Shown here one piece after another: positions 1,842-64,000 of a DNA stretch of 64,000 bases. Position 1 is the stretch's first letter. Every line of letters starts with the position of its first letter. A program made the translations under genes and the position numbers. The notes under the pieces were generated by a model. It worked only from the letters and a program-made list of their open reading frames with translations, ran no database searches and was not told where the DNA came from. The stretch comes from a virus (lineage: Duplodnaviria > Heunggongvirae > Uroviricota > Caudoviricetes), in IMG/VR virus record IMGVR_UViG_3300011008_000003; one strand, written 5' to 3'.

Positions 1842-3161
1842 CTACCTCAGAGTTAAAAATTTCTTATAACATCTAAATGCACTCAGAATATCGTCGACAT
1901 GTGTAAGTTCCATCGGCGAATGCATGTTCAGAACCGGAACACCAGCATCGATAACGTTCATGTTGAATCGACAATAGATACTGGCGATAGTTCCACCACC
2001 ACCCATATCAACCTTACCCATTTCATCGAATTGATAAAGTTCATTTTTGAATAAGTTACGAAGCTTTGCGATATATTCAGGCATTGCGTCGTTAGAACCG
2101 GACTTACCATGAGAGCCATTATATTTACTGAGCATCATGCCGTAACCGAGCTTGGCAGAAGTATGTTTGGAATAAGCGTCGGCATAAAGTGGGTCAAAAG
2201 CTGCCGTAACGTCAGAAGACAACATATTAGATTTAGACATGACGTCAAAGAAATCCATGTCGATTGTATTTCGGTCTTCACGCTGACTATACATCTTCTT
2301 GAGACAAGTTTCAAACCAAACAGATTCTGCACCGGTAGCACTATAAGAACCGATTTCTTCTTTATCGACAAGAACCGTACATGCAGTATTGTCAGGAATA
2401 TCTGTTGTTTCCAAAATAGCTTTAAGGGAAGTAAAAGCACAAACTCGGTCGTCTTGTCCATAACCAGCGACTAAAGACATGTCTAAACCGCAATATGAAG
2501 CTTTTCCTGCCGGAACAAGTTCGAATTCAGAAGAATAGAAATCATCTTCATCAATATCATACTTGTTTTTTAAAATTGACAGAAGTTTTTCCTTAACAGC
2601 ACATTTTTCTTTGTCAAAAACTTCTTTATCACACTTGCTAGCGACAGCTGCGATAACGTCCATGTTTTCACCATTGACAAAATCTTCAGCCTTCTTGCTT
2701 GACATACGCTTATAATCAAGGTGCGGAAGCAAGTCAGTAATACAGAAAACCGGATCTCCTGGATTATCACCGATATTAACATTGATTGTTGTTCCGTTCG
2801 GTTTACAAACAACGCCGTGAAGTGCGAGCGGTAAAGTAACCCATTGATACTTTTTGATTCCGCCATAATAATGAGTATCAAAATATGCGACATCATCTTT
2901 ATCAGTAAGAGCGGCTTGCTTTATGTCGATACGGGGAGAGTCAATATGTGCACCGAGAATATTATATTCTGGATTTTTACCAACAATAAATGCGGCAAAA
3001 TTCTTACGTCTGTTTATGAAATAAACCTTATCTCCAGGTTTATATTTTCTGTTAGCTTCAAAAGATTTAAATCCTGCAGCAACAGCTTTTCGTTCAGCAA
3101 AATCTACCCATTCGCGTTCAGTCTTATTTTGAGAAAGGGCTTCAATGTATTCATTAGTCAT
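1842..3161 (-). CDS. M18 family (aspartyl) aminopeptidase
   Basis: GAHIDSP, GYGQDDRVC, DKEEIGS, SSDV, GGGTI, DAGVPVLNMHSPME motifs. Confidence 0.92.
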   Translation of the reverse strand: MTNEYIEALSQNKTEREWVDFAERKAVAAGFKSFEANRKYKPGDKVYFINRRKNFAAFIVGKNPEYNILGAHIDSPRIDIKQAALTDKDDVAYFDTHYYGGIKKYQWVTLPLALHGVVCKPNGTTINVNIGDNPGDPVFCITDLLPHLDYKRMSSKKAEDFVNGENMDVIAAVASKCDKEVFDKEKCAVKEKLLSILKNKYDIDEDDFYSSEFELVPAGKASYCGLDMSLVAGYGQDDRVCAFTSLKAILETTDIPDNTACTVLVDKEEIGSYSATGAESVWFETCLKKMYSQREDRNTIDMDFFDVMSKSNMLSSDVTAAFDPLYADAYSKHTSAKLGYGMMLSKYNGSHGKSGSNDAMPEYIAKLRNLFKNELYQFDEMGKVDMGGGGTIASIYCRFNMNVIDAGVPVLNMHSPMELTHVDDILSAFRCYKKFLTLR

Positions 3162-5160: not shown

Positions 5161-5378
5161 TAAAAGTTATTCCTTATGAGCATGTCCAATTCCTGCATGG
5201 AATCGACGTTTGTAACCTTCGTTCCAAGATGATCGTAGAGATAATAGCTTGGCTTGTTCATCATGAGGCTGTATTCTTCGATACGAAACTTGTTACGGCC
5301 TACGTTTACGCCGACAATCTTGCCGGACTGGTTACGGATATATTCGATTTTCTTACCAAACATTATTATGCTCCACAC
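5160..5378 (-). CDS. Hypothetical protein
   Basis: Coupled ORF. Confidence 0.65.
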   Translation of the reverse strand: MWSIIMFGKKIEYIRNQSGKIVGVNVGRNKFRIEEYSLMMNKPSYYLYDHLGTKVTNVDSMQELDMLIRNNF

Positions 5379-6181
5379 ATTTTTACAAAATCTTCTTCAG
5401 AAATAAGGGTTGTTCCCTGCTTGCGAGCCTTGACAGCCTTACTGGATGTAGAATTCGGGTCTGCAAGGACTAGGAATGTCGTATCTTTCTTCATATTTTC
5501 ATGAACGATACCGCCGTTCTTTTCGACCAATTCCCAAAGTTCCTTACGAGGACGGGCAGCGGCACCAGTGAAACAGAAAGACTTGCCGTTAAGAGAACCA
5601 GCGACCGGAGCCTTCGGTACGAGAATCTGAACATACTTCAAAGTTTCACGCATGTCGTTTTCGAAAATGTCAAGTCCCTTTCTGAGTTTTCTTGATGTAA
5701 TATCGCCGACACCTTCGCAAGTGAAGTCAGAACATGCGATGAAGTCGTCAAACGTGTCCAATTTCTTTGCGTCGATAATCCTCTGGACGATTTTTTCACC
5801 AACCCCTGATATGTTATAGCCCGAGATAAACTGAGCCAATGTGGCTTGTTTATGAGCGTCTATTTGAGCCTTAATAATGTCGGCAGAACGCTTGCTGAAA
5901 CCTTCGAGACTTGCGAGCTTCTTATAGTCGATTTTGTACAAATCGGAAATAGTTGTGAAAATACCGGCATCGTAAAGAGTTTCGATAGTAGTAAGGCCAA
6001 GTTCCATAATCTGGAGCTTTTCAGTCCACTTGGAAATTCTTCCGGAAAACTTGCTCTTGCAGAAGTCGTTAGAGCAGGTAAGCTGTTTATGATTGTCAGA
6101 AATGACCAATTCGGCGCCGCAGACAGGGCAAACGGTGGGCATGTTCCAATTGTGAAGGCTAGCGAGGGTTCTTACGTCCAT
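5366..6181 (-). CDS. NAD-dependent DNA ligase C-terminal half (Zn finger, HhH, BRCT), stand-alone
   Basis: PTVCPVCG..CSNDFC, HhH repeats (LEGFSKRSA, ISGVGEK), BRCT GKSFCFTG..KAVKA..ISEEDF; no KxDG adenylation or OB domain; own promoter and GGAG RBS. Confidence 0.88.
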   Translation of the reverse strand: MDVRTLASLHNWNMPTVCPVCGAELVISDNHKQLTCSNDFCKSKFSGRISKWTEKLQIMELGLTTIETLYDAGIFTTISDLYKIDYKKLASLEGFSKRSADIIKAQIDAHKQATLAQFISGYNISGVGEKIVQRIIDAKKLDTFDDFIACSDFTCEGVGDITSRKLRKGLDIFENDMRETLKYVQILVPKAPVAGSLNGKSFCFTGAAARPRKELWELVEKNGGIVHENMKKDTTFLVLADPNSTSSKAVKARKQGTTLISEEDFVKMCGA

Positions 6182-6204
6182 TTTTTACTCCATTTTATGA
6201 GTTA

Positions 6205-6240
6205 AATATAACAAAAGGATTGACGTTCGTCAACCCCTTT
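6205..6240 (-). promoter_or_regulatory. Fused terminator/early promoter element
   Basis: GGGGTTGAC-GAAC-GTCAATCC-TTTT; TTGACG-N17-TATATT. Confidence 0.85.
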
Positions 6241-6258
6241 TTGTCGGCTCTGCAAAGC

Positions 6259-6420
6259 TTAATGTCTCTTTTTCCAAAAACCGCAAACTAAATATAGAAA
6301 TATTGATAGGCAGATTACATGAATAATTGAAAATTCCAAGCTTAATAACGTACAGAATATTAAGACGTTAAAGAAACTGGTCAGGAATATATTAATTATC
6401 TGTAATACTAGCTTTTCCAT
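6259..6420 (-). CDS. Small two-TM membrane protein (53 aa)
   Basis: Manual: MEKLVLQIINIFLTSFFNVLIFCTLLSLEFSIIHVICLSIFLYLVCGFWKKRH. Confidence 0.6.
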   Translation of the reverse strand: MEKLVLQIINIFLTSFFNVLIFCTLLSLEFSIIHVICLSIFLYLVCGFWKKRH

Positions 6421-6632
6421 TTGATTTGCGACTGGCTTAAAATTTCGATTGTTTCCTTTACTTCAACCAGAGTCCCAGACCTTACGCCGTTAAGTTCGTA
6501 AGAATGAGCTTCCAGGTCTTCGATGCAATCATCTTTATTTATATACTTCTTGGCGGTTTTGATGTTTGGAGACCAATGCCAGCCATTCCAGTATGATTCT
6601 TTGTCTTTCAGTACGAAGTATGTTTGATTCAT
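6408..6632 (-). CDS. Hypothetical protein
   Basis: 74-aa ORF in operon. Confidence 0.7.
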   Translation of the reverse strand: MNQTYFVLKDKESYWNGWHWSPNIKTAKKYINKDDCIEDLEAHSYELNGVRSGTLVEVKETIEILSQSQIKWKS

Positions 6633-6635
6633 AGT

Positions 6636-6908
6636 TTACCTATTCCAAAAACAATCTTGTGTATATTCAGCAGTATCGACCTGAATAATTTCGTCAGTAT
6701 GAATACATTCTGTCTTCGTAGGGACCAAATCCCAACCGTATTTTCCGCATTTTTCCATTGCGAATTGTTCGGCCAATGACTTATCAGTCCATGTAAGAAC
6801 GTGTTCATTCAAAACTGATTGATAACCATTGATTTTATTGGGAAACATTGTATTTGGTGCAAAATTAAATGCAACAGTCCATTCTACGTCTCTAGTTTTT
6901 GTACTCAT
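6636..6908 (-). CDS. Hypothetical protein
   Basis: 90-aa ORF, AAGG RBS. Confidence 0.7.
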   Translation of the reverse strand: MSTKTRDVEWTVAFNFAPNTMFPNKINGYQSVLNEHVLTWTDKSLAEQFAMEKCGKYGWDLVPTKTECIHTDEIIQVDTAEYTQDCFWNR

Positions 6909-6916
6909 ATAACCTT

Positions 6917-7099
6917 TTACATATCTGCTTCGATGATTTTTTCAGAAACCTCATCAAGATTATCCAATGCCTTTTCTGCATTGATTCTTTCATTGGTTAC
7001 AACTTCCGTGTCAAAGCGGTCGAGATGAAGCATCATTCTCTTCAACTCTTCCGCCGGGAACATAGACATCATCGACGGTCTGTCTTCTGTATTGTCCAT
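6917..7099 (-). CDS. Hypothetical protein
   Basis: 60-aa ORF. Confidence 0.6.
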   Translation of the reverse strand: MDNTEDRPSMMSMFPAEELKRMMLHLDRFDTEVVTNERINAEKALDNLDEVSEKIIEADM

Positions 7100-7109
7100 A
7101 CTTATTTAT

Positions 7110-8216
7110 TTATTCATTATCCATTTTCTCGAGAGCGTCCTTAATAATCATTTCGTGATGGAAACCCATTTTCGGAAGATTATCAAGTTTGAACCAACGA
7201 GTATCGGCTGCGTCGTCACCCGCGAAAGCAAGCTTCTTTTCCTTGCCAGTTACATGGACGAGGAACGCAGTATCGATAATACGGAGGCGCGGGTCGAACA
7301 TATGGCTGTAAGTACGAATCTGCTTGAACTTATGAACAGGAATATCCAGATGAGTTTCTTCGCGGAGTTCACGAGCTGCGGCATGTTCGAGGTCTTCGTC
7401 AGCCTTTACGTTCTTACCAGTTTCCTTGTCGACAATATCAATCGGATCAAAGAAACCGCCACAGCAGCACCAGTAATTCTGGAAAGGAGGTTTCTTACGA
7501 CGGATAAGCAAGACTTCATCGCCACAGATAGGAACGTTGTCGACAGTATTAGCGAACTTGCCCCATCCCTGCTTCTTGTAATTTTCGATAAATGCCTTTT
7601 CAATCTTATCGTAATCCAAAGGATTCTGATGATACAGCGAATGTTCCTTAATATAATGGAAAACGTTCTTGCTGATATGGTCCTGGACCAGCTTATAATG
7701 ACATTCCGGATCCATTTCAAATGCCTGACGAACATAGCTACTGGAAACATCCTGAACCTTATCGCTCAGTTCCATAAACGTATAGTCGTAGGAATCGGTA
7801 GTATACTTCTTCTGCCAATCCTTTTCGCTTCCCTTACGGGTAAAGATGATAAACTTGTAGTATTTCAAAAGACGCTTGGAGAACTTCCACTTGTCGGCAA
7901 GCAAGCTAGCCCATTCGTCTTCGCCGATAACAATAGTAATGTCCTTCGGGTCGACTGTTCTGAAATTTACAGAAATAAATTCATACATTCGGTTATTCTG
8001 CTTATACAGCTCGTACTTCTTGATATTACGAGCGGCAAGAGCATTACGAACCATATTGCAACGTTCTTCAACCGAAGTACGATTTTTCTTTTCATCATTA
8101 TCGGTTACGAGGATATGGAACTTATCATTCTGGCGAAGCTTCTTATGGATCGTCTTGATAATTTCTTCGTGTGCATGAGTAAACGGGTCAAACCAGCTTC
8201 CAAAAATATAATGCAT
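7110..8216 (-). CDS. Bifunctional NMN/NaMN adenylyltransferase-Nudix hydrolase (NadM/NadD-Nudix)
   Basis: HxGH-like GSWFDPFTHAH, IGED, VSSSYVR; Nudix box GGFF...AAARELREET, AGDDA; start moved to ATG 8216 after promoter and AAGGA RBS. Confidence 0.88.
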   Translation of the reverse strand: MHYIFGSWFDPFTHAHEEIIKTIHKKLRQNDKFHILVTDNDEKKNRTSVEERCNMVRNALAARNIKKYELYKQNNRMYEFISVNFRTVDPKDITIVIGEDEWASLLADKWKFSKRLLKYYKFIIFTRKGSEKDWQKKYTTDSYDYTFMELSDKVQDVSSSYVRQAFEMDPECHYKLVQDHISKNVFHYIKEHSLYHQNPLDYDKIEKAFIENYKKQGWGKFANTVDNVPICGDEVLLIRRKKPPFQNYWCCCGGFFDPIDIVDKETGKNVKADEDLEHAAARELREETHLDIPVHKFKQIRTYSHMFDPRLRIIDTAFLVHVTGKEKKLAFAGDDAADTRWFKLDNLPKMGFHHEMIIKDALEKMDNE

Positions 8217-8241
8217 AGAAACATCCTTTATGTTTTTATTA

Positions 8242-8273
8242 AATATAGAAAAAGGCTGACTCGTCGTCAACCC
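8242..8273 (-). promoter_or_regulatory. Fused terminator/early promoter element
   Basis: GGGTTGAC-GACGA-GTCAGCC-TTTTT-C-TATATT. Confidence 0.85.
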
Positions 8274-23431: not shown

Positions 23432-24340
23432 TTAGACATCGATTATAAAATCGTTCATGTCTGCTATTTTGCTGGAACGTTCCATTTTAGAACCAGTATA
23501 ATCCACAATATCGCAATACATGCTCCGTTCTCCAGGATAACCAATCGGATTACACATAATATGTATATGGTTTCCCTTGGAATTTACGTATTCAGCCATA
23601 CGCTTGCCATGGACATGACCGCAAACCCAGTAGGTATCGTTATCCAGTTTCTCGAAGAACTTTTCACCCTTAAAATAGAAAACATAATTCCAAGAGTTAT
23701 TCCTGTATTCAAACGGAATACCGAGTTCATACGGAACGAAATGAGTAACGACAATTTTTGGTTTCTGCTTAACTATATCGTTCAGCTTCTGTTTATAATG
23801 GTCCCAAATCTTCATCGGTTCCTGGTTCATGTACCGCCAGAACTTGCCATCATACCAGTGCCGTTTCCAGTTCGTGAACGGATCCAATCCGAACTGCGGA
23901 GGTTCACACTTGAAATCGCACATACCCATGCATCCGCCGATTCCGTTGATAACTTCACCGTCAAGTAGGTAAATATTATCAAACGTCTTACAGATAGCCT
24001 TCATTTCATCGATTTTCTTTTCAGACGAAACAAAAGGTAAATTAGACTTCGACGGAGTTCCACCACGAACTGTCAAGTCATGATTACCGAGAACAAGATA
24101 AACTTCCTTATACTTCTTTGCAAGCCAAGGAATCATCCGACTAAACGTCAGAAAGTCATTAGAATAATCACCGGCAAGAACTAATCGATCAACAAACGGG
24201 ATTTGATAATAATCCCACATATAGTCCATAGTTTCCGGTGTAACAAGTTCATCCGGGTCATCGACATAAAGCCTTTTAGGACCAACAGCATACTTCCAGT
24301 GGAAATCCACGTGAATATCGGAAAGAAATAAAGTTTTCAT
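23432..24340 (-). CDS. Calcineurin-like metallophosphoesterase
   Basis: SDIH, LAGD, LGNHD, VTHFVP, CGHVH, NPIGY. Confidence 0.9.
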   Translation of the reverse strand: MKTLFLSDIHVDFHWKYAVGPKRLYVDDPDELVTPETMDYMWDYYQIPFVDRLVLAGDYSNDFLTFSRMIPWLAKKYKEVYLVLGNHDLTVRGGTPSKSNLPFVSSEKKIDEMKAICKTFDNIYLLDGEVINGIGGCMGMCDFKCEPPQFGLDPFTNWKRHWYDGKFWRYMNQEPMKIWDHYKQKLNDIVKQKPKIVVTHFVPYELGIPFEYRNNSWNYVFYFKGEKFFEKLDNDTYWVCGHVHGKRMAEYVNSKGNHIHIMCNPIGYPGERSMYCDIVDYTGSKMERSSKIADMNDFIIDV

Positions 24341-24537
24341 AAAAATATCCAAGTTCCTGCGTCTATAATTTCTGTAATTTCTTCTAGTGATTTACCTTCG
24401 TGATAAAGTCTTATAATATCTCGGTTATATTCCATTTCGTCGACAACGAAGCTCTTTACATCGTCATAACTCCAATTTTCAAATTGTTCGGTTTTCTGGA
24501 GTTCTCGTAAAACCTTATCAACGATGTCTTCTTCCAT
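24337..24537 (-). CDS. Small acidic protein
   Basis: 66 aa. Confidence 0.65.
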   Translation of the reverse strand: MEEDIVDKVLRELQKTEQFENWSYDDVKSFVVDEMEYNRDIIRLYHEGKSLEEITEIIDAGTWIFL

Positions 24538-27088: not shown

Positions 27089-27766
27089 TTACTTCGCCTT
27101 AAACATAGAAGTTAAATCAATTTCGAAGCGATAACCTCTCTGGTCATAGCATCTGTCATAGTCTTTAATTTCGCCAGTTTTAAAACCAGATTCGGTAAGA
27201 GCTTCCTTTGCTAATTCTGCGGTATGTCGAATATCCCAGACCCCTTCTTTAGCATTCCATCCGTCAGCATACAGATAGATTTTTATATCGCCATGTTCAC
27301 GCCTGATTACATTATGGCAATCTGCCCTGCCGACCTGTACAAATACGACGTCAAAATCCCTATTGCCGACGCATGTTTGAATCCATTCGGTCAATTCTTT
27401 ACTATTGACAATCAAGTTTGCCGAAACGAGTTCTTCTGCTTTGGCTTTAGCTTTACGACGGTCACCTTCTTCTTTATATTCTCGTTCTTTATTGGCCTTG
27501 TCGTCAACACGTTCCTGACCTAAGTTCTTGAATTTATCAAAACTTAAATCAGACCAGGCATGAGTCTTTTTATATTCATCAACATTTTGTTCCATGTTAG
27601 AAAGGAAAACCTTTCGCCACGGATTTAACTTTTTCTCGTTTTTCCGTTTTTCGATAATTTCCTTTACTAAAACAGCAGCTTTCTCTTCAAGTTCAGACGG
27701 TTCTTTTACAATGTCTTTTTCCGGTGTAAGCCAGTTGATAGTGAATTCATCTTTCGTCGTTTTCAT
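27089..27766 (-). CDS. Hypothetical protein
   Basis: 225 aa; ATGA-coupled to coaE. Confidence 0.75.
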   Translation of the reverse strand: MKTTKDEFTINWLTPEKDIVKEPSELEEKAAVLVKEIIEKRKNEKKLNPWRKVFLSNMEQNVDEYKKTHAWSDLSFDKFKNLGQERVDDKANKEREYKEEGDRRKAKAKAEELVSANLIVNSKELTEWIQTCVGNRDFDVVFVQVGRADCHNVIRREHGDIKIYLYADGWNAKEGVWDIRHTAELAKEALTESGFKTGEIKDYDRCYDQRGYRFEIDLTSMFKAK

Positions 27767-28704
27767 TTACTAGTCCTCGTAACATAATATTCTTTAGCTT
27801 CTTTTTGTGCTTGGTTGTATTCGTCAGCCCAAGCGTCGATATATTCATTCCATTTCTTTTCAGGAGAATTTGCTTTCTTCTGTTCGGCAATGAATTTCTC
27901 GTTTAGTTTCTTGTAATATTTGTCCTGGTTCGCACAAGGGAACGGACAACTAGTACAACCGCCACAGTTAAAGAAACTATAGCACCATGCGTTATCATGG
28001 CAGTATGTCGGACATTCTTTCAGATAACGGATATAAGTAGCGAGCTTTTCTTCATGCGTGATATTCAGTTCTTTTTCGAGAACTTCCATCAACCTGTCGT
28101 TAAGATCTTCTTCCGTTCCGTTATTTTCGATAACCGACAATACGTCAGGAGGATCCATACTTTGAACCGGCATAAGGTCGGACTTGTAAATATTCAGATA
28201 TTTTTCGTCTTGCGTCTTATCGAGCATCATGAGCAAATCAGAATTTTTTCTAGCCTGTAACCTTTCCATTCTAATTTTTTCATCAGCCTTTACCATGATA
28301 ACGGTATCAATGGATAGGTAATTACGGCACCAGCCGAGTTCTGACGTCAATGCGGCTTCGAGAAAGATAACTTCCTTATTGTTATTGCTAGAATAAAAAT
28401 GACTTAACGAATCGAGCATTGGCCACATCACAGCTTGCATGATGTCATTACGCCAGCGCTTTGCATTTTCATCATCTCTAGTGAAAACTACGGATAATAA
28501 CTTATAAGTATCAATCATTCCTTCTTCATCAAGAACCCAAGGACCGAGATTATAAACGATGTCTCGGAATGAAGCCGGTTCCTGGTAATATTTCTTGAAT
28601 TCGGAATCCATATCGATTACTTTATAATGTTTCTTACGGAGAAGTTCAGAAACTTTGGACTTCCCGCTAGCCATTCTTCCAGTAATTAAAATAAATCTAC
28701 CCAT
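27763..28704 (-). CDS. coaE: Dephospho-CoA kinase with C-terminal Cys-rich extension
   Basis: LITGRMASGKSKVSELL..VIDMD..IFLEAAL..MVKADEKIRMERLQAR..VIENNG; extra CPTYC..C..CGGCTSCPFPC. Confidence 0.8.
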   Translation of the reverse strand: MGRFILITGRMASGKSKVSELLRKKHYKVIDMDSEFKKYYQEPASFRDIVYNLGPWVLDEEGMIDTYKLLSVVFTRDDENAKRWRNDIMQAVMWPMLDSLSHFYSSNNNKEVIFLEAALTSELGWCRNYLSIDTVIMVKADEKIRMERLQARKNSDLLMMLDKTQDEKYLNIYKSDLMPVQSMDPPDVLSVIENNGTEEDLNDRLMEVLEKELNITHEEKLATYIRYLKECPTYCHDNAWCYSFFNCGGCTSCPFPCANQDKYYKKLNEKFIAEQKKANSPEKKWNEYIDAWADEYNQAQKEAKEYYVTRTSK

Positions 28705-28706
28705 AG

Positions 28707-28847
28707 TTAAAACCCGTCGTTAAAACCGCCTTCGTCATATCTGCTCATGAAATGTTCCCAAAGGCGTTCGTTGTATTCTTCTTCAATAATCATTTCCTCT
28801 AGTTCAGCTTCACGCAAGAGCTCTTCTTCAGTCTTTTCTTCATCCAT
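28707..28847 (-). CDS. Small very acidic peptide between coaD and coaE
   Basis: MDEEKTEEELLREAELEEMIIEEEYNERLW... Confidence 0.55.
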   Translation of the reverse strand: MDEEKTEEELLREAELEEMIIEEEYNERLWEHFMSRYDEGGFNDGF

Positions 28848-29397
28848 GGTATGCATCCAAGATTTCTTTAAGAGTGTTCTGGCGTAATTCAGTTCCCGTC
28901 GTCCAGCAAGAGTTAAAAAACAAATCACTGAACTGCTTAACGTCTGCGAATTTCAAGAACTGCTTTACTGCAGTAGAAGACAAATGCTTTGTATGCTTGT
29001 CTGCTGCGAAATATACGTAATTCAGTTCGAATCCCATTTTTTTCTTGAGCACATTATTATATTCACGCTGTGATTCTTCGAAATCCATGTCAGCCTGGTT
29101 ACGAATACCGCGAATGACCGTGGTAATGCCTTTGGATTCGCAATATTCGGTAAGTCCTTTGTCAGTGACATCGTAGGAAATTTTCTTTTCACATGTCGTA
29201 TCTTTGAAAAAGTTCTTAATCCAGGTCATACGTGTCTTAGCCGGAACAGAATAATTCTTATCCGGATTCGATGCGACAAGAACGATAACCTTATCGAAGA
29301 CATGAGTAGCCTGGTAAATCGTAGTCAAATGACCCGGATGAACCGGGTTGAATGAACCGGGGAATACTGCAACGTTTTTAGTTTTCTTCGATTTCAT
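28840..29397 (-). CDS. coaD: Phosphopantetheine adenylyltransferase
   Basis: AVFPGSFNPVHPGHL, NPDK, VIRGIRNQADMDFE, HLSSTAVK; GAGGA RBS. Confidence 0.9.
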   Translation of the reverse strand: MKSKKTKNVAVFPGSFNPVHPGHLTTIYQATHVFDKVIVLVASNPDKNYSVPAKTRMTWIKNFFKDTTCEKKISYDVTDKGLTEYCESKGITTVIRGIRNQADMDFEESQREYNNVLKKKMGFELNYVYFAADKHTKHLSSTAVKQFLKFADVKQFSDLFFNSCWTTGTELRQNTLKEILDAYHG

Positions 29398-30250
29398 TTT
29401 TATCCTCTTCATGAGACTGGACTTTACGCAAGCTTTCCAGGATGATTCTCAGTTTTTCATGTTCTTCTTTGCTGAAGTCATATTCTTTGTCGCCGTATGC
29501 AAGCGTACAAACATCGTCTATGACCTGAGCAATCGTCGGTTTTTTCGGGTAGGCTTTTTTCCATGCCCATTTTTCCGAACGGTCATAATCAGGTTCAGGA
29601 ATTTTACGTTCAAACTGTCCTTCATACCAGGTTTTGTAGCGGTCGCTATAATCCCAGTCAATCAGGCGTTCAATACCGAAGTTATCCAACAGACCTTCAC
29701 GACCTTTCGGTGAAAGGTTATGCAGAATTTCGGCGATTTCACAACATTTCCTGAAGTCAGCTACGACGTTATCATAGAAACGTTGACAGTTGAGGTGACG
29801 AATTCTCCAGAGTTTATCACGCTGGGCTTCATATTTTTCGTATTCGTCGAAACTCAAATCTTCATAGTTCGGATAAACCGCTTCAATCGGTGTAGAGTAA
29901 TCACCTTTGACACGAATATGAACAGCAGTCAGTTCCATAAACTGTTGAAGTTTTGCCAAGAATTTCTGTGTTTCTCCAATCGTCTGTTCGTCTTCGCGGT
30001 CACGAAGAGAACCGATTACGGTAACATAGCCATAGTTAAAGGTTTCACCGTCTTCAGAAGAAAACGAACTCGGCGAAACAGGAGGGTTTACGAAGAATTT
30101 TACCGGACCTTCGGAGCCAGTAATATCAAAACCGTTACGACGAGTCATTTTGATAGCCCATTCGATATAGGCTACGATACGATCTTTGCTGCCGGACTGA
30201 AACGGCAATTGTGCGTTAAATGTTCCACGAATGTATGTCCAATGACTCAT
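29378..30250 (-). CDS. Conserved phage protein (MSxWTxIxG..GSEG..GSLRD type)
   Basis: AAGGAG RBS; first gene after promoter. Confidence 0.75.
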   Translation of the reverse strand: MSHWTYIRGTFNAQLPFQSGSKDRIVAYIEWAIKMTRRNGFDITGSEGPVKFFVNPPVSPSSFSSEDGETFNYGYVTVIGSLRDREDEQTIGETQKFLAKLQQFMELTAVHIRVKGDYSTPIEAVYPNYEDLSFDEYEKYEAQRDKLWRIRHLNCQRFYDNVVADFRKCCEIAEILHNLSPKGREGLLDNFGIERLIDWDYSDRYKTWYEGQFERKIPEPDYDRSEKWAWKKAYPKKPTIAQVIDDVCTLAYGDKEYDFSKEEHEKLRIILESLRKVQSHEEDKNEIEEN

Positions 30251-30275: not shown

Positions 30276-30310
30276 AATATAATAAAAACGGGTCTACATG
30301 TCAACCCGTT
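30276..30310 (-). promoter_or_regulatory. Fused terminator/early promoter element
   Basis: AACGGGTTGAC..GACCCGTT-TTT; TTGACA-N17-TATATT. Confidence 0.8.
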
Positions 30311-30503
30311 TCGTGCAATTTTCTGTCTCGAAGGATGAGCCCTTAAGTTTTGGTTTTTTCCTTAGAAGTTTATCGAATTCTTTAGCTAATCGTTGTGAAT
30401 CGGATAAAGGTTTTCGTGGCTTCTTCGGTTTAGGCTTAGAAACTGCCGGAGTATCTGTTATTTCTCTGTCAACTTCTAATACTTTCCATTCACTTATTAT
30501 CAT
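30294..30503 (-). CDS. Small basic protein
   Basis: ATGA-coupled; LAKEFDKLLR motif. Confidence 0.6.
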   Translation of the reverse strand: MIISEWKVLEVDREITDTPAVSKPKPKKPRKPLSDSQRLAKEFDKLLRKKPKLKGSSFETENCTKRVDM

Positions 30504-35096: not shown

Positions 35097-35130
35097 AATA
35101 TAGAAAAAGGGCTGACTTTCGTCAACCCTT
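35097..35130 (-). promoter_or_regulatory. Fused terminator/early promoter element
   Basis: AAGGGTTGAC-GAAA-GTCAGCCCTTTTT-C-TATATT. Confidence 0.9.
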
Positions 35131-35909: not shown

Positions 35910-37058
35910 TTATTCTGAATCTCTTTTAACGAAAAGCGTAAATCCAATAAAACCAATAAAATAAAGCAGGGCGAGAATAAGATATAACGTATTGGTGGTA
36001 AAGATGTTCGCAAGAACCGGACCTGCGATACCAGCCATACCCCAACCGCTAAGTGTCATTGCATGGACGGTAGAAACACAGGAATTTCCAAATCTCTTGG
36101 CGAGCAAGGACGGAAGACAGCTGAAGTTTCCACCATAAGAGAATTCACAGAATAAGATACCGATAAGCAAAAGAATCGGCTGTTGAGTATAGCAAAGGAA
36201 CGCTCCTAGAATACCCAGACTACAAACCCAGTGATATGCCGCCTTTCTTCCGATTTTATCCGATGCCGTACTCATTCCGAACCTGCCGCCGACGTTGGCA
36301 ATAGCCGTTAACGACATGAGCATTGCAATAGCCGTAAATCCGGATCCGAGTAGCAATCCCTTTTCCTGTGAAATCAAAGCGAGACCGCATGTAATGTTGA
36401 TAAAGAACATGAACCAGATAGAAATATATTCTTTCGTCAGGAATTTCGCTTTCCACAGGTTCTTATAAGGAACAGCGGTATAGATAGTCGAAATGTATGC
36501 AGGATTCGGCTTGTATAACCAGGAAGAAAGACTCATGACTCCAAGGAATATCGAACCCATCAAAAGGAAAACGACCGGTAACGAGAAACTGGTCAGGAAA
36601 TATTCAATCATAGGCGAGGCGACAAATTTACCGAGTCCGAATCCTGTAATTGCTAAACCGCTTGCGAGGCCTTTATGGTCGCTGAAGTTAGCCATAAGCT
36701 GCTTAATCGGCGACGTATAGCCTATTCCAGTTCCGCATCCCATGAAGGCACATGCGACATAATAAAGCGGAAGAAATCTGGAATAAACGGATAACGAAAG
36801 CATGAGCATGCCGACAGCGAACAGTACGGTTGATACGATAGCCATTCGTTTTGGATTCATCTCGACGAAACGGCCGAAAGCCGCAGCTCCCATGCCGAGG
36901 AAGAAGATAATGAGGGTAAACCCGATGTCAGCCTGGAATTTGCTAATATCGAAAGCCTCCATTATGTTCTTTGCATATTGTGAATAGTTATAGACGCTGC
37001 CTAATGAAATAGGCAGAATCAAACCTGGAATTAAAATATTTAAGTATCTGTTTTTCAT
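35910..37058 (-). CDS. MFS transporter, OFA (oxalate:formate antiporter)-like
   Basis: About 12 TM segments; GSVYNYS, KGLASGLAITGFGLG, NVGGRF..SDKIGRK, YGGNFS. Confidence 0.88.
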   Translation of the reverse strand: MKNRYLNILIPGLILPISLGSVYNYSQYAKNIMEAFDISKFQADIGFTLIIFFLGMGAAAFGRFVEMNPKRMAIVSTVLFAVGMLMLSLSVYSRFLPLYYVACAFMGCGTGIGYTSPIKQLMANFSDHKGLASGLAITGFGLGKFVASPMIEYFLTSFSLPVVFLLMGSIFLGVMSLSSWLYKPNPAYISTIYTAVPYKNLWKAKFLTKEYISIWFMFFINITCGLALISQEKGLLLGSGFTAIAMLMSLTAIANVGGRFGMSTASDKIGRKAAYHWVCSLGILGAFLCYTQQPILLLIGILFCEFSYGGNFSCLPSLLAKRFGNSCVSTVHAMTLSGWGMAGIAGPVLANIFTTNTLYLILALLYFIGFIGFTLFVKRDSE

Positions 37059-37064
37059 AGTACA

Positions 37065-37595
37065 TTATTTATTACGCAAGATTTTCGCAATATTTTCAAC
37101 AACTTGGTCATATCCTGCAATGTTGCCATCGACTCTGGTATATTCGATACCGTTGTCATTGAGAAAGTCAAGAATACGCTGGTCGATATTTCTGGCTTCT
37201 TCTTCGGTCTGGTTTCTTCCGTTCGGATTATAGTCTTTCCTGCGGTCGACGAAGATATTGAACGTATTTTTATATTTCTTTGCCTCGTAAAGACATACAT
37301 CCTGATAAGGCTTTTCATCCGTGTACATTGCCCCGATGGCAATCGGGCTGTCGGTAACGATAACATCTACCTTTCCAAGAAGTCGAGCAACCTTAAGACA
37401 TTGCTTGCCAGTAACATAGAGCTGACAGTGCTGGAGAACGAACTGGTCGCCTTGCCAGACACGATCCTTCGCATATTCTGAGACATATTCAGAATCGATT
37501 CCGGCCATCTTGAGTTTTGCGAAGATATAAGCTGCACCTGTTGACTTTCCCGCGCCTGGACCGGCGTAAAGATTGACTAATAACGTATTTTTCAT
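37065..37595 (-). CDS. NadR/Ttd14-like P-loop kinase (AAA_28)
   Basis: NLYAGPGAGKST, EYVSEYAK, VTDSP, NGRNQTEEEA. Confidence 0.8.
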   Translation of the reverse strand: MKNTLLVNLYAGPGAGKSTGAAYIFAKLKMAGIDSEYVSEYAKDRVWQGDQFVLQHCQLYVTGKQCLKVARLLGKVDVIVTDSPIAIGAMYTDEKPYQDVCLYEAKKYKNTFNIFVDRRKDYNPNGRNQTEEEARNIDQRILDFLNDNGIEYTRVDGNIAGYDQVVENIAKILRNK

Positions 37596-59032: not shown

Positions 59033-60127
59033 TTAAAGGGTTTCAATCAGTTTGAACGCAGCTTCTATCGTGTCGTCCATGTCGAAATACTTGTAATTTC
59101 CAAGTCTTCCAACAAATCTGGTCTTCTCGTTCGGGATAGCCTTATATTTTTCATATAATGTGTTGTTCTTCTCGTTATTGACCGGATAATAAGGAACGTC
59201 TCCCTTCTTCCATTCAGAACTGTATTCCTTACTGATAATAGTCTTATCAGAACCCATATTATTAAACCACTTATGTTCAATGATTCTTGTATATGGTTCC
59301 TCGTCAGAAGTATAGTTGACGACCGCATTTCCCTGATAGTTCTCCTTGTCAAGAACTTCGGTCTCGAACCTCACGGAACGGTATTCCAACGGACCGTAGC
59401 AATAGTCATAATACTCGTCGATACAGCCGGAATAGAACACATGGTCAGCCATCGATTCCCACTTTTCCTTGTCCTTCAGGAAATCAGTATTCAAAAGAAT
59501 ATCAGCGCCTTCAAACATTCTCTTAATGAGTTTTGTATAACCTTCTACAGGAATACCTTGATATGTATCATTAAAATAATTATTGTCATATGTAAATCTT
59601 AAAGGAAGTCTTTTGATGATTTCAGGCGGAAGATCCTTAGGATCTCTCTGCCACTGCTTCAACGTATAGCCCTTGATTAAGGTCTCGTACATGGTCTTTC
59701 CGACCATGTTGATAGCCTGTTCCTCGAGGTTCTTCGGATTATCCACATGATACTGTTCCGATTCTTCCCTAATCTTATTCTGCGCCTCTTCCGGGGTCAC
59801 GACACCGTAAAGCTGATGGAACGTGTTCATGTTGAACGGAAGATTGTAGATTTTACCTTTGTAATTAGCTATCGTATTCAACTGGAACGTGTTGAACTCG
59901 CCGAATTGATTTACAAAATTCCAGATTTTTTTATTGGATGTATGAAAAATGTGCGGGCCTCTGCAGTGAATATCAATATTTTCTCTTCTTTCAGTATAGC
60001 AATTACCTGCAATATGGGGGCGTTTTTCGATAACTAATACTGACTTACCTGCTTTGATAAAATGATACGCCAACGTAGCGTTAAATAAGCCAGCACCAAC
60101 CAAAAGTATATTGTAATGTTCTTTCAT
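59033..60127 (-). CDS. glf: UDP-galactopyranose mutase
   Basis: VGAGL, IAGNCY, GPHIFHT, LPFNMNTF, GYTLKQW, YQGIP, TRIIEHK, PYYP, GRLGNYKYFDMD. Confidence 0.95.
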   Translation of the reverse strand: MKEHYNILLVGAGLFNATLAYHFIKAGKSVLVIEKRPHIAGNCYTERRENIDIHCRGPHIFHTSNKKIWNFVNQFGEFNTFQLNTIANYKGKIYNLPFNMNTFHQLYGVVTPEEAQNKIREESEQYHVDNPKNLEEQAINMVGKTMYETLIKGYTLKQWQRDPKDLPPEIIKRLPLRFTYDNNYFNDTYQGIPVEGYTKLIKRMFEGADILLNTDFLKDKEKWESMADHVFYSGCIDEYYDYCYGPLEYRSVRFETEVLDKENYQGNAVVNYTSDEEPYTRIIEHKWFNNMGSDKTIISKEYSSEWKKGDVPYYPVNNEKNNTLYEKYKAIPNEKTRFVGRLGNYKYFDMDDTIEAAFKLIETL

Positions 60128-60157
60128 TTATTCACCTTTGTAATAAAAACTTTACAT

Positions 60158-60169
60158 TATTTATAAATA
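60158..60169. promoter_or_regulatory. Palindromic bidirectional late promoter (TATTTATAAATA)
   Basis: TATAAATA on both strands between divergent glf and endonuclease genes. Confidence 0.7.
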
Positions 60170-60227
60170 ATATATGGTGTTAGTAACGGTAATTACTAAC
60201 ACCTACCAAACACAATGAGGTAGCATT

Positions 60228-61259
60228 ATGTCTGATACATTATATATAAAACCAGATAAAGAAAAAACGTATTCTGTTAATTCCGAAGAAGAATTAAATT
60301 ATTATAAATCCCTAAGACCTATTAGACTTTGGTCACGAACACATTTTAAATGTAAATGTAGTAAGTGCCATGAAGATAAAGACATTTTATTATTAAATTT
60401 GAAATTTCCATTTATTTGCTTTAAATGTAAAGCAAAAATAGTTGGCAATAAAGAATCTACAAAAGAACGCCGTAAAGCTACATGTTTAGCTAAATATGGT
60501 GTTGAAAATACATTTCAATCAGAAGAAAAGAAAGCTAAAATACATCAAACTTGTATGGAACGCTATGGCTATGAATGTGCATCACAAGTTCCAGAATTTA
60601 TAGAAAAACAAAAGAAAACTAATATAGAACGTTATGGTGTTCCTTGTACATTAAATACTAAAGAAAATCTTATTAAACGCAAAGAAACTTGGATAGAACA
60701 TTATGGTGTTGATAACCCTAATAAATCTGATATAATAAAAGCAAAAACAATAAAAACTAATTTAGAAAAATATGGTGTTACAAACCATATGAAAACTGAA
60801 GAATCTAAATTAAAATCAATGCAAACTAAACTAGAAAAATATGGAGATGCATTCTATTCTGGATTTGTAATTTATTATTATAACAATATCTTTTTTAGAT
60901 CTAAACCTGAATTATGTTTCTACATTTATAATAAGGATCAGGGAAAAGATATAATTTATGAACCACAACCATATTTTAAATATCAATGCGAAGATAAAGA
61001 ATATTATTATAAACCCGATTTCTTATTAGAAAATAAATTATATGAAATTAAAGGCGATTATTTCTTTGACGATGCTGATAATCTCATAAATCCATATGAT
61101 AGGTCATTAGACAATGTTGCTAAAGCTAAACAATTATGCATGGAAGAACATAATGTTACTGTTTTAAAAAGCAATAAATATATGTTCTATGTCGACTATG
61201 TTAAAGAAAAATATGGAACTGATTATATAGAAACTTTTAGATATAAAAAAGAGGATTAA
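60228..61259 (+). mobile_element. Free-standing homing endonuclease (Zn finger, KYGV repeats, PD-(D/E)xK nuclease)
   Basis: CSKC..CFKC; about 6 repeats T(C/N)xE(K/R)YGV; FRSKPE..YKPDF..YEIKG; opposite strand to neighbours; AT-rich. Confidence 0.8.
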
Positions 61260-61266
61260 TATCCTC
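61251..61266. terminator. Bidirectional terminator
   Basis: GAGGAT-TAAT-ATCCTC with flanking A/T tracts. Confidence 0.6.
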
Positions 61267-61269
61267 TTT

Positions 61270-61827
61270 TTAATTATTTGGTAAACCACTCCATATTATA
61301 CCATCATTGTTATTTGCAATAATTGTTTGACATACTGTTGTTTCATTCATATCATTTGATATATTATTAAGCATTTGTTCAATTTCATTTAAAAATGGTT
61401 CTGCAATAATCATCAATTTATTATCAATTATAGTTAAATGATTATTTATATTTTGGCCATCTTTTAAATGAGAAATTAATAATTCTTTACCTACAATATT
61501 ACGATGAATAAAATTACATCGTAATGTGGCATATAAAAATTCACCGATTGTATTTATTTGATTTGGCTCCGGTCGTATATGTAAATTTCTATTATATATT
61601 GAAATTATATTTGATTCAATATTTTGATATTTAATATTTTGCGGTTTTAAATAAACATTAATTAAATTTTTAAATTTTTCATTATCATGTCCAGTTTGAT
61701 ATAAATCTGCTGACATTGAACCTAATAATGCAGAAATTATTGTGAATGTTTGTGGAGAACCAATAATAGCAATTTTTCGACAATCATTAATTATTGATAT
61801 GTATTTATTATAATACTGGTGATTCAT
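61270..61827 (-). CDS. Hypothetical protein (leaderless; HEPN-like R-x4-H)
   Basis: LYATLRCNFIH; AT-rich. Confidence 0.6.
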   Translation of the reverse strand: MNHQYYNKYISIINDCRKIAIIGSPQTFTIISALLGSMSADLYQTGHDNEKFKNLINVYLKPQNIKYQNIESNIISIYNRNLHIRPEPNQINTIGEFLYATLRCNFIHRNIVGKELLISHLKDGQNINNHLTIIDNKLMIIAEPFLNEIEQMLNNISNDMNETTVCQTIIANNNDGIIWSGLPNN

Positions 61828-61834
61828 AATATTT

Positions 61835-61867
61835 AATATAGTAAAAAGACTGACATTTGTCAGCCTT
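61835..61867 (-). promoter_or_regulatory. Fused terminator/early promoter element (variant)
   Basis: AAGGCTGAC-AAAT-GTCAGTCTTTTT-AC-TATATT. Confidence 0.75.
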
Positions 61868-61876
61868 TATTTTAAG

Positions 61877-62725
61877 TTATATTATCATTTCACATATATC
61901 ACTACAATAAACCGGTTTTTTTGTAATTTCATTTATTATTCTTGCTTCATTATAATTAGATTCTATAAAAATTAATGCATCACTTTGCTTATAAAAATTA
62001 GCTTTATATTTTGCAGGATTTATTTTTCTACGTTCTTCATGATTTTTTGCAGGACACATAATTAATTTTTCATATTCTATATTATGTTCTTTTAACCAAT
62101 TTTCAGTAATTTTTCTATATTTTTCTAGTCGACCTGTTACTATATATTTTAACTTTTTATCTGGTACAAATTTTTGCTTAGATTGTTTTATAAAATTAAT
62201 ATATTTTTCGCCATCATCATCTATGCCTTTTGGAACATCTTCGCATAAAAATCCATCCATATCTATACAACCTCTATTTATACCACGTTTTAAAATATTC
62301 CATGGTAAAAATTGGTCTTTAAAAATTTGAAAATAAATATCAACTTTATTAACAGAATATGGTTCTACAAAAATTACACAAGTTGTAATTTTAACTTCTT
62401 TGTTATTTTCTATAATTTTTTGTTTTGCTGTATTCATTGTTTCACCTAAACCCATTGCATCATCAAACAATAAAATATGTTTTACATTTATAGGGTAATC
62501 TGGTGATAATGATGCTTTTCTTAATTTAATAGATTCAGTATTATTTAAAAAATCAAATAATGAAACTACAGGTTTTCTAAGATATTCGCCAAGAATTGTT
62601 CCAAATATATAACCACTTCTTGGAATACATACAATTAAATCTATATCTGATGGTATTTTAATTAATGAATTAAAACATAATGCATTTATATAATTTAAAT
62701 CTTTATAATTTCTAAAATCTAACAT
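61877..62725 (-). CDS. Type I phosphoribosyltransferase fused to a HAD phosphatase
   Basis: IPRSG, ILLFDDAMGLGETM (PRPP loop); CIDMDG, IVTGR, FIES (HAD motifs). Confidence 0.85.
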   Translation of the reverse strand: MLDFRNYKDLNYINALCFNSLIKIPSDIDLIVCIPRSGYIFGTILGEYLRKPVVSLFDFLNNTESIKLRKASLSPDYPINVKHILLFDDAMGLGETMNTAKQKIIENNKEVKITTCVIFVEPYSVNKVDIYFQIFKDQFLPWNILKRGINRGCIDMDGFLCEDVPKGIDDDGEKYINFIKQSKQKFVPDKKLKYIVTGRLEKYRKITENWLKEHNIEYEKLIMCPAKNHEERRKINPAKYKANFYKQSDALIFIESNYNEARIINEITKKPVYCSDICEMII

Positions 62726-62727
62726 TA

Positions 62728-63558
62728 TTAACCTAACATTTTTTTAATTTCATCGATTGATAATTTATCCCATTCATCTGTTTTATATTCTGGAAATATT
62801 TTTTTCCATTTTTCCATTAAATGTGGAAATAATCGTAATACAATATAAAATTGTAAATTTTTCCACCATACACCATTGATATTTTTACCAGCAGCATTTA
62901 ATCCTGTACTATTCATACTATCATCACATGCATATTTATCAAGGTGTAAACAGCCCGATTCAATATCATTATATCTATACCATGGTTGTAACCAACTTTC
63001 ATCACATTTTGGGCAGTATTTTAAACGTAGTTCTAAATATTTTGGATTTAATGCTTCTAATGGAAATGTATCTGGCGGTATTACACTATTTCCGGAAATT
63101 TTCATACGAATAGAATGATCAGGTAATTTTAATTGTTTATAATGACGATATTTAAAATTTATACCTTTATCTGGAACTAAATAATTTACTAAAGACTCAA
63201 AAACAGCATATATCCTTTTTGACGTAGTTACTGTTTTCATTCGTTCTACTAATTTTATGTCATAAAAATTATCTTCATCTATTGCTACTACATAATCATG
63301 ATAATGTTTTGGATAAACATTCCAACGTTTTGTACAACCATCGTCATAATCTACCCATGAAATAATTACATTATTTGCTTTACATACTAATAACAAATCT
63401 TCAGGTAAATCTTTTTCTTTATTCGGAAAATTTACAGTTGATAACCAAAGATAAAAATAATCCGGCTTAACTGTTTGTGTTTTAAAAAATTTATATAAAA
63501 ATTTACCGACTTCTTTTATTCTTTTTGGGTATGATGTCATAGTAACTACGGTTTTCAT
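62728..63558 (-). CDS. GT-A-fold glycosyltransferase
   Basis: TMTSYPKRI..QTVKPD..LWL..LPEDL..AIDEDNFY..CDESW. Confidence 0.75.
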   Translation of the reverse strand: MKTVVTMTSYPKRIKEVGKFLYKFFKTQTVKPDYFYLWLSTVNFPNKEKDLPEDLLLVCKANNVIISWVDYDDGCTKRWNVYPKHYHDYVVAIDEDNFYDIKLVERMKTVTTSKRIYAVFESLVNYLVPDKGINFKYRHYKQLKLPDHSIRMKISGNSVIPPDTFPLEALNPKYLELRLKYCPKCDESWLQPWYRYNDIESGCLHLDKYACDDSMNSTGLNAAGKNINGVWWKNLQFYIVLRLFPHLMEKWKKIFPEYKTDEWDKLSIDEIKKMLG

Positions 63559-64000
63559 ATTTCAAACTCCGATTTATTTGAAAATTTTATATTAAAAAAT
63601 TCATTTAAATATTTTTTAATAAAATCAAAATTGTCTTGTTTATATAAACAATCATTAATACAAACAAGTTTTTTATTCATTATTAATAACATTATATCTT
63701 TATAGTTATTATTATGCGATTCTATATAAGCAAAATCTTGCAAGTTGGATTCTGTATATGTTCCCAAATTTAATCTAATATATCTATATAACCAATCACT
63801 ATTAACATTATATGATTGCCTAAATTTATCATTAGGCTTATTTAATTTAATTAAATCTGTTTTTAAATCAGTAAAAATTTTTTCCACTTCCGACTTTTTT
63901 GCAGTTATCCCAACATGTACATTTTTATAAATATTAAATTTTTTTGTATACTTTTCGGCTAATTTTAAATCATTATATACAATATTCTGGAAAAAATCTA
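63555..64000 (-). CDS. Stealth-family sugar-1-phosphate transferase, C-terminal part (5' end off window)
   Basis: Frame open to window end; KFRQ, LVCINDC and FSNKSEFE match Stealth CR3/CR4. Confidence 0.7.
   Translation of the reverse strand, partial: DFFQNIVYNDLKLAEKYTKKFNIYKNVHVGITAKKSEVEKIFTDLKTDLIKLNKPNDKFRQSYNVNSDWLYRYIRLNLGTYTESNLQDFAYIESHNNNYKDIMLLIMNKKLVCINDCLYKQDNFDFIKKYLNEFFNIKFSNKSEFEI

Follow-up and report, generated by a model that had tools for sequence, protein, structure and literature searches.

Why would a phage encode just the two terminal steps of coenzyme A (CoA) synthesis? The question is raised by the IMG/VR virus record IMGVR_UViG_3300011008_000003 (Caudoviricetes), of which a stretch of 64,000 nt was analyzed and is called the window below. 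On its minus strand lie coaD, encoding a predicted phosphopantetheine adenylyltransferase (PPAT), and coaE, encoding a predicted dephospho-CoA kinase (DPCK), with a 46-aa acidic open reading frame (ORF) between them. Both enzyme assignments are credible, and more certain than any physiological reading of them. The reading we consider reasonably probable is that of a "CoA finishing" cassette, which would convert 4'-phosphopantetheine of the host to dephospho-CoA and then to CoA. What is new here is a DPCK family with a four-cysteine module, together with a conserved micro-ORF; the cassette type itself is already among viral auxiliary gene lists, with coaD and coaE given as abundant in snow viromes (PMC11097641).

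Layout of the unit and identity of its enzymes

All genes at ~27.0–30.3 kb are on the minus strand. In order of transcription, from a 290-aa ORF to a 225-aa ORF, the features of the unit are:

29378–30250, minus strand: ORF of 290 aa with no family assigned, first gene of the unit (from the ORF listing)
28840–29397, minus strand (ORF 28840–29412): coaD, bacterial-type PPAT, 185 aa (TIGR01510 and motifs)
28707–28847, minus strand: acidic ORF, 46 aa, isoelectric point (pI) 4.05, between coaD and coaE
27763–28704, minus strand: coaE as a whole, 313 aa (Pfam CoaE and fold)
28069–28704, minus strand: coaE kinase domain, residues 1–212, a DPCK-like P-loop kinase (PF01121)
27766–28068, minus strand: C-terminal extension of coaE, residues 213–313, with a four-cysteine motif and a charged helical tail
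27089–27766, minus strand: ORF of 225 aa with no family assigned, in ATGA overlap with the coaE stop codon

The end of the 290-aa ORF overlaps the start of coaD by 20 nt, the acidic ORF shares 8 nt with coaD, its ATG overlapping the coaD stop codon (ATGGATGA), its own stop codon is separated from the coaE ATG by just 2 nt (TAACTATG), and the coaE stop codon overlaps the start of the 225-aa ORF. coaD, the acidic ORF and coaE are translationally coupled, and co-transcription of coaD and coaE is likely. The ORFs and their junctions confirm the arrangement of these three genes reported in the initial annotation, at the place it gave. The upstream coaD ATG, at 29412, is absent from relative L033 and the second, at 29397, is conserved; the start is therefore likely 29397, the coordinate first given. 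In bacteria coaD and coaE are usually unlinked, so that the phage coaD differs from bacterial ones in its coupling to coaE as well as in being phage-encoded.

The coaD product scores 107.7 bits on TIGR01510 against a cut-off of 103.3, a narrow margin, and matches the domain over its full length. Its 32 best sequence matches in the PDB are all PPATs. Among 17 relatives, little or no variation is seen in the PGSFxPxxxGH motif, K47, R96-G-x-R99, D103, E107 or S141 (the serine of the SST motif). In an alignment with the Staphylococcus aureus enzyme, PGSFNPVHPGH, K47, R96, R99, D103, E107 and S141 fall on matching positions. The (T/H)xGH motif of nucleotidyltransferases is present, and the catalytic residues of Escherichia coli PPAT are T10, H18, K42, R88, R91 and S129. 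The likeness to bacterial CoaD (EC 2.7.7.3; S. aureus 4nah, E. coli 1b6t) thus extends to the motifs as well as the model score, but identity to cellular PPATs is only ~30%, and the phage protein has a C-terminal extension of ~25 aa that is common to the phage clade. It is a credible PPAT, predicted from its sequence to adenylylate 4'-phosphopantetheine.

An adenylyltransferase followed by a P-loop kinase could also be a divided version of NadR, acting in nicotinamide adenine dinucleotide (NAD+) metabolism, with the adenylyltransferase using nicotinamide mononucleotide (NMN) and the kinase nicotinamide riboside. This would resemble NARP3, one of the phage NAD+ reconstitution pathways NARP1–3 (10.1101/2024.02.11.579819; PMC13464706). 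The gene order is that of NadR (PMC13464706), the coaD product has weak matches to the NadR-type NMN adenylyltransferase (NMNAT) model nadR_NMN_Atrans and to PHROG 3462, also an NMNAT model, and phage Mx1 has an annotated PPAT near a Nampt gene. However, coaD, at 44 bits, does not reach the nadR_NMN_Atrans cut-off of 341 but exceeds that of the coaD model; NadR is only the 33rd PDB match, behind the 32 PPATs; and the kinase matches CoaE rather than AAA_28. No PnuC-like partner adjoins the pair, and the flanking ORFs belong to no Pfam or PHROG family. The window also has its own NAD genes: a fusion of an NMN/nicotinic acid mononucleotide adenylyltransferase with a Nudix domain at 7110–8270 (minus strand; TIGR00482, 80 bits) and an AAA_28 (NadR-kinase-like) P-loop kinase at 37065–37595 (minus strand). 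Given these separate genes and the relative scores of coaD on the two models, the CoaD-like gene is not the NAD enzyme of this phage, and the divided NadR pathway, which we consider very unlikely, was rejected on the hidden Markov model scores together with the separate NAD genes.

In coaE, residues 5–155 match PF01121 (50.1 bits against a cut-off of 27), and a profile built from 13 relatives matches DPCK structures, including 2if2 from Aquifex aeolicus (1e-20) and mouse COASY (2f6r; 9e-15). The AlphaFold2 model of the full-length protein has a mean pLDDT (predicted local distance difference test) of 87, and ranks 1–22 of its Foldseek search are all DPCKs, with template modeling (TM) scores of 0.72–0.80 normalized to the target. 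No variation is seen across 28 sequences at G14, K15 and S16 of the P-loop, at D33, the catalytic Asp of the DxD motif, or at E116, R145 and N194, and hardly any at G9, R148 and R152; R145, R148 and R152 are the lid arginines. All 15 members tested of the four-cysteine kinase family match Pfam CoaE. The phage protein thus shares its P-loop, DxD motif, lid arginines, terminal NNG motif and fold with bacterial CoaE (EC 2.7.1.24, PF01121, TIGR00152; A. aeolicus 2if2, E. coli 1vhl), but has 313 aa rather than ~200, the difference including the four-cysteine module and charged tail. It is a credible DPCK, and phosphorylation of the 3'-hydroxyl of dephospho-CoA is predicted from both sequence and model.

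The order of PPAT then DPCK, and a clearly homologous DPCK domain, are also found in eukaryotic COASY. That protein is a fusion, however, whereas the phage genes are separate, with the micro-ORF between them, and the phage PPAT is of bacterial type. No PPAT-DPCK fusion was found among 82 near relatives (up to 548 aa) or in a search without a length limit.

The four-cysteine tail and the acidic ORF

The C-terminal extension of coaE carries the motif N-x2-C-Y-x3-N-x3-C-x2-C-P-F-P-C (bases 27934–27984), with cysteines at positions 241, 250, 253 and 257. All four, along with P254 and P256, are invariant in the 28 sequences, down to 25% identity, and F255 is nearly so. Cellular DPCKs have nothing that corresponds to residues 213–313. 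The tail has no Pfam or Atlas match, and its profile search against the PDB gave only a chance match to a chemokine. When the tail alone was compared with 1.8 billion representative proteins there were 21 matches; 14 of these were aligned, and all 14 are kinases that match Pfam CoaE and carry the motif at the C-terminus. Seven distinct IMG/VR relatives are on viral contigs, of 18 to 424 kb. The module appears to be nearly confined to the C-termini of CoaE-like kinases, of which several are encoded on phage contigs.

Folded alone, the tail is not predicted with confidence (pLDDT 53). Within the full-length model it is helical and packed, with pLDDT of 76–95 for residues 211–260. The four invariant cysteines suggest a predicted zinc or Fe-S site, and for the tail as a whole we infer a metal or Fe-S site that would stabilize or regulate the kinase. 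If the module does bind a metal or Fe-S cluster, this would be the first regulated form of an otherwise simple kinase; the locus supplies a defined and readily assayed DPCK variant with a four-cysteine module. One member of the family (P0085, 468 aa) has a C-terminal Fib_succ_major domain (9e-17). Such domains are typically found in Fibrobacter and Bacteroidota, and this one may be a hint at the host range of related phages.

The acidic ORF between coaD and coaE encodes 18 Asp or Glu residues against four Lys or Arg, and has no family match. An intact frame of unchanged length is kept in the metagenome contigs L033–L035 (89–94% DNA identity), where its ratio of nonsynonymous to synonymous polymorphism (pN/pS) is 0.06–0.29, compared with 0.08–0.23 for coaD and coaE, all from small counts. 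It is probably a real gene under purifying selection. In the clades at 54–61% CoaE identity it is missing, and coaD there ends 0–6 nt before coaE.

Relatives of the pair and the CoA steps they carry

A megablast search against GenBank phages gave no match to the window. CoaE relatives with 51–61% identity are found on IMG/VR contigs of 411–415 kb, one of which has terminal repeats and is rated complete, and a protein search gave many ruminant-gut contigs of 400–419 kb. The arrangement of coaD relative to the kinase gene in these and more distant relatives is:

L001–L013, L015, L029 and L033–L035 (completeness various): coaD directly before coaE
G008 (complete): PPAT over the cut-off, not linked to the kinase
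G007 (40% complete): PPAT over the cut-off, not linked to the kinase
G006 (85% complete): no PPAT found
G009 (26% complete): no PPAT found
L014 (18-kb fragment): no coaD within ~5 kb upstream or ~6 kb downstream of the kinase

Adjacency of the two genes is retained in every relative down to 37% CoaE identity. The PPATs of the distant G007 and G008 score 118–122 bits on TIGR01510, an M18 aminopeptidase gene adjoins the kinase gene in both, and every complete genome examined that has the kinase also has a PPAT. The window has an M18 aminopeptidase of its own (1842–3161, minus strand; NF002600, 545 bits), and in L018–L020 a homolog of it (58–59% identity, at ~5800–7280) directly follows the four-cysteine kinase, with no preceding PPAT. 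A homolog of the 7110–8270 NMNAT-Nudix fusion (65% identity) is likewise found less than 5 kb from the CoaE-like kinase in G008 (L020).

The initial annotation had proposed a survey of phages for the same adjacency, and the pattern seen among the relatives recurs outside them. Five GenBank phages with a CoaD homolog were examined (LR756501, LR745206, Lak-B5, Caulobacter phage C2 and Mx1). LR756501.1, of 735 kb, has coaD (149 aa) directly followed by coaE (205 aa), coupled through ATGA and with flanking genes on the other strand. Its CoaE is of normal size and lacks the cysteine module, and the cassette has no micro-ORF. Identity to the proteins of the window is 28–30%; the two pairs are highly divergent and may have separate origins. 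In LR745206 both genes are present but unlinked. In Myxococcus phage Mx1 (L037) the annotated PPAT is followed by a second cytidylyltransferase-like gene, with the Nampt gene 1.7 kb further downstream, and no CoaE was found in the genome. Where a phage has "CoaD" alone, the gene may in some cases serve NAD metabolism and not that of CoA.

The earlier suggestion that this phage carries the last two CoA steps and no others is borne out as far as the window ORFs and two relatives extend. Among the ~100 ORFs of the window no upstream CoA family was matched, and no block of genes encoding a full CoA pathway lies nearby. Two relatives of 415 and 411 kb, G001 (complete) and G002 (98%), gave no hits to CoaB (PF04127), CoaC (PF02441), pantothenate kinase of type III (PF03309) or type I (PF00485), acyl carrier protein (PF00550), AcpS (PF01648) or AcpH (PF04336); of 14 control genomes the same models match 10–14, except for type III pantothenate kinase (8) and AcpH (1). 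AcpH was not matched near coaD-coaE either. An HD domain was matched in no ORF of the window and none of G002, and the sole HD gene of G001 is ~60 kb from the pair.

Function of the pair and neighboring genes

To our knowledge, nobody has tested the function of phage coaD and coaE genes. In the proposed "CoA finishing" cassette, CoaD would use ATP to adenylylate 4'-phosphopantetheine, giving dephospho-CoA, and the coupled CoaE would phosphorylate the 3'-hydroxyl of this product to give CoA. Because the complete relatives lack pantothenate kinase and CoaBC, the substrate must be 4'-phosphopantetheine of the host, which could come from ongoing synthesis, turnover of the acyl-carrier-protein arm, CoA breakdown or uptake. 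Phosphopantetheine accumulates in E. coli, where CoaD is feedback-inhibited by CoA. With terminal steps freed from host control, the CoA and acetyl-CoA pools would probably be sustained or raised throughout the long infection of a giant phage, independently of the host CoaD. It is the substrates, the direction of the benefit, and the roles of the four-cysteine tail and acidic micro-ORF that we infer in this scheme. The coupled pair has been kept in a widespread clade of ~415-kb ruminant-gut phages, and a similarly coupled pair occurs in the unrelated 735-kb phage; this speaks for selection acting on the whole conversion of phosphopantetheine to CoA.

Several observations weigh against this reading. 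coaE scores 65.4 bits on TIGR00152, 0.15 bits short of the equivalog cut-off of 65.55, and its extra C-terminal module was not found in any characterized DPCK. Lak-B5, Caulobacter phage C2 and Mx1 have CoaD alone; since some jumbo phages do without it, the kinase is not a universal requirement. That CoaA and CoaBC are lacking is seen in relatives at 54–61% CoaE identity and in a 64-kb window. Contigs of the relatives have been binned into metagenome-assembled genomes (MAGs) of both Methanobrevibacter and Clostridia, labels that disagree, and therefore no inference on the CoA pathway of the host can be drawn from them. The contigs concerned, L029 and L030, are in MAGs of a Methanobrevibacter sp. 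(goat ileum) and a Clostridia bacterium (yak omasum), and these labels are probably a binning artifact rather than host evidence.

The first two of these points would also fit a kinase that has diverged to another substrate or to a regulatory role, perhaps with the four cysteines as a redox or metal sensor and with a CoA-like or other adenylylated product. The extra module is conserved and was not found outside the four-cysteine kinase family, and in distant relatives the kinase gene adjoins the M18 aminopeptidase gene instead of one for a PPAT. But the DPCK catalytic set (P-loop, D33 of DxD, lid arginines) is invariant, the family members tested all match Pfam CoaE, the best fold matches are all DPCKs, and a PPAT is present in every complete genome examined, so that we regard such divergence as unlikely.

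The initial annotation interpreted the pair as a means of rebuilding CoA. As in NARP1–3, a short phage route would finish an essential adenine-containing cofactor from a late intermediate, here 4'-phosphopantetheine left after a host defense has cleaved the pyrophosphate bond of CoA; NARP3, too, pairs an adenylyltransferase and a P-loop kinase, but the cofactor and the enzyme families of all three differ from those of coaD-coaE. Control of NAD+ is now central to phage-host conflict, and CoA is the other great adenine-containing carrier. That the last two steps alone are encoded would suit this interpretation, as would the strong linkage of the pair, its recurrence in unrelated huge phages, the NAD salvage genes (NMNAT-Nudix and AAA_28 kinase) in the same window, and the principle demonstrated for NAD+ by NARP1–3. 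On the other hand, a full-text literature search turned up no CoA-depleting antiphage system, the neighborhood of the pair has no defense-related or CoA-cleavage context, and plain metabolic support predicts the same gene content equally well. Of the earlier interpretation, the PPAT and DPCK identities, the coupling and the restriction to the last two steps stand, while no context of defense or CoA cleavage was found for its counter-defense component, which by analogy with NARP might apply but seems improbable. A more elaborate version, a CoA analog of NARP directed against an undiscovered CoA-cleaving defense, with a kinase gated by metal or redox state through a phage-specific four-cysteine module and with the micro-ORF product in the complex, is quite unlikely. 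Should the pair do no more than replenish CoA, the cassette would be of an ordinary auxiliary metabolic type.

RNA polymerase can begin transcripts with dephospho-CoA, and the initial annotation had also mentioned dephospho-CoA RNA capping. A phage PPAT would raise dephospho-CoA, which could supply 5' caps for phage or host RNA, and CoaD without CoaE in several jumbo phages would be in keeping with this. It fits poorly here because the kinase to which CoaD is coupled, in a conserved linkage, would use up the dephospho-CoA, and we consider capping very unlikely as the function of this locus.

Two further features, one ahead of the unit and one beyond it, are:

30276–30312, minus strand: hairpin that overlaps a sigma-70-like promoter, in the gap preceding the 290-aa ORF
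23432–24352, minus strand: calcineurin-like metallophosphoesterase (PF00149)

The sigma-70-like site (TTGACA-17-TATATT at 30304–30276, 11/12 match) is the best promoter-like site within 14 kb and is inside the hairpin, which has a 10-pair stem. Promoter-like sites in the region show no excess over shuffled sequence, and this one is a consensus match only; it is a possible start of the transcription unit with coaD and coaE. A look-alike is found at 35097–35130 (minus strand), also between genes and in front of a gene block. Each element consists of a hairpin of 10 pairs, with TTGAC within or next to the loop, followed by a T-run and TATATT; in this phage such elements may act as terminator and promoter in one.

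The ORFs at the two ends of the unit have no Pfam, PHROG or PDB match. The 290-aa ORF is found only in the closest relatives (L033–L035), and the 225-aa ORF follows coaE in the clade of the window and in the clade at 54% identity, and is duplicated in L002. The metallophosphoesterase, from a mainly viral protein family with generic family names only and without a PDB sequence homolog, is 3.4 kb downstream of coaE in the window and in L033. Its homolog (65% identity) is 0.6 kb upstream of coaD in L001, L007 and L029, and in the L002 clade it is not within 10 kb of the pair; its link to coaD-coaE is a loose one.

The AAA_28 kinase gene is 6 nt upstream of a gene for a major facilitator superfamily (MFS) transporter of the lactate/oxalate-formate type (35910–37058, minus strand; 382 aa), a pairing conserved ~6 kb upstream of coaD in L001, L007 and L033. 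NARP3 likewise joins a transporter to a kinase, and the pairing is reminiscent of it, with a transporter from another family. The region 59033–64000, in whose final 4 kb GC content falls from ~38% to 24%, contains a UDP-galactopyranose mutase (59033–60127), a DUF7487 protein (60228–61259, plus strand) and a weakly phosphoribosyltransferase-like ORF (61877–62725); this region may be an acquired surface-sugar island. Finally, a stand-alone ORF at 5366–6181 (minus strand) corresponds to the C-terminal part of an NAD-dependent DNA ligase alone, with its Zn-finger, HhH and BRCT modules.

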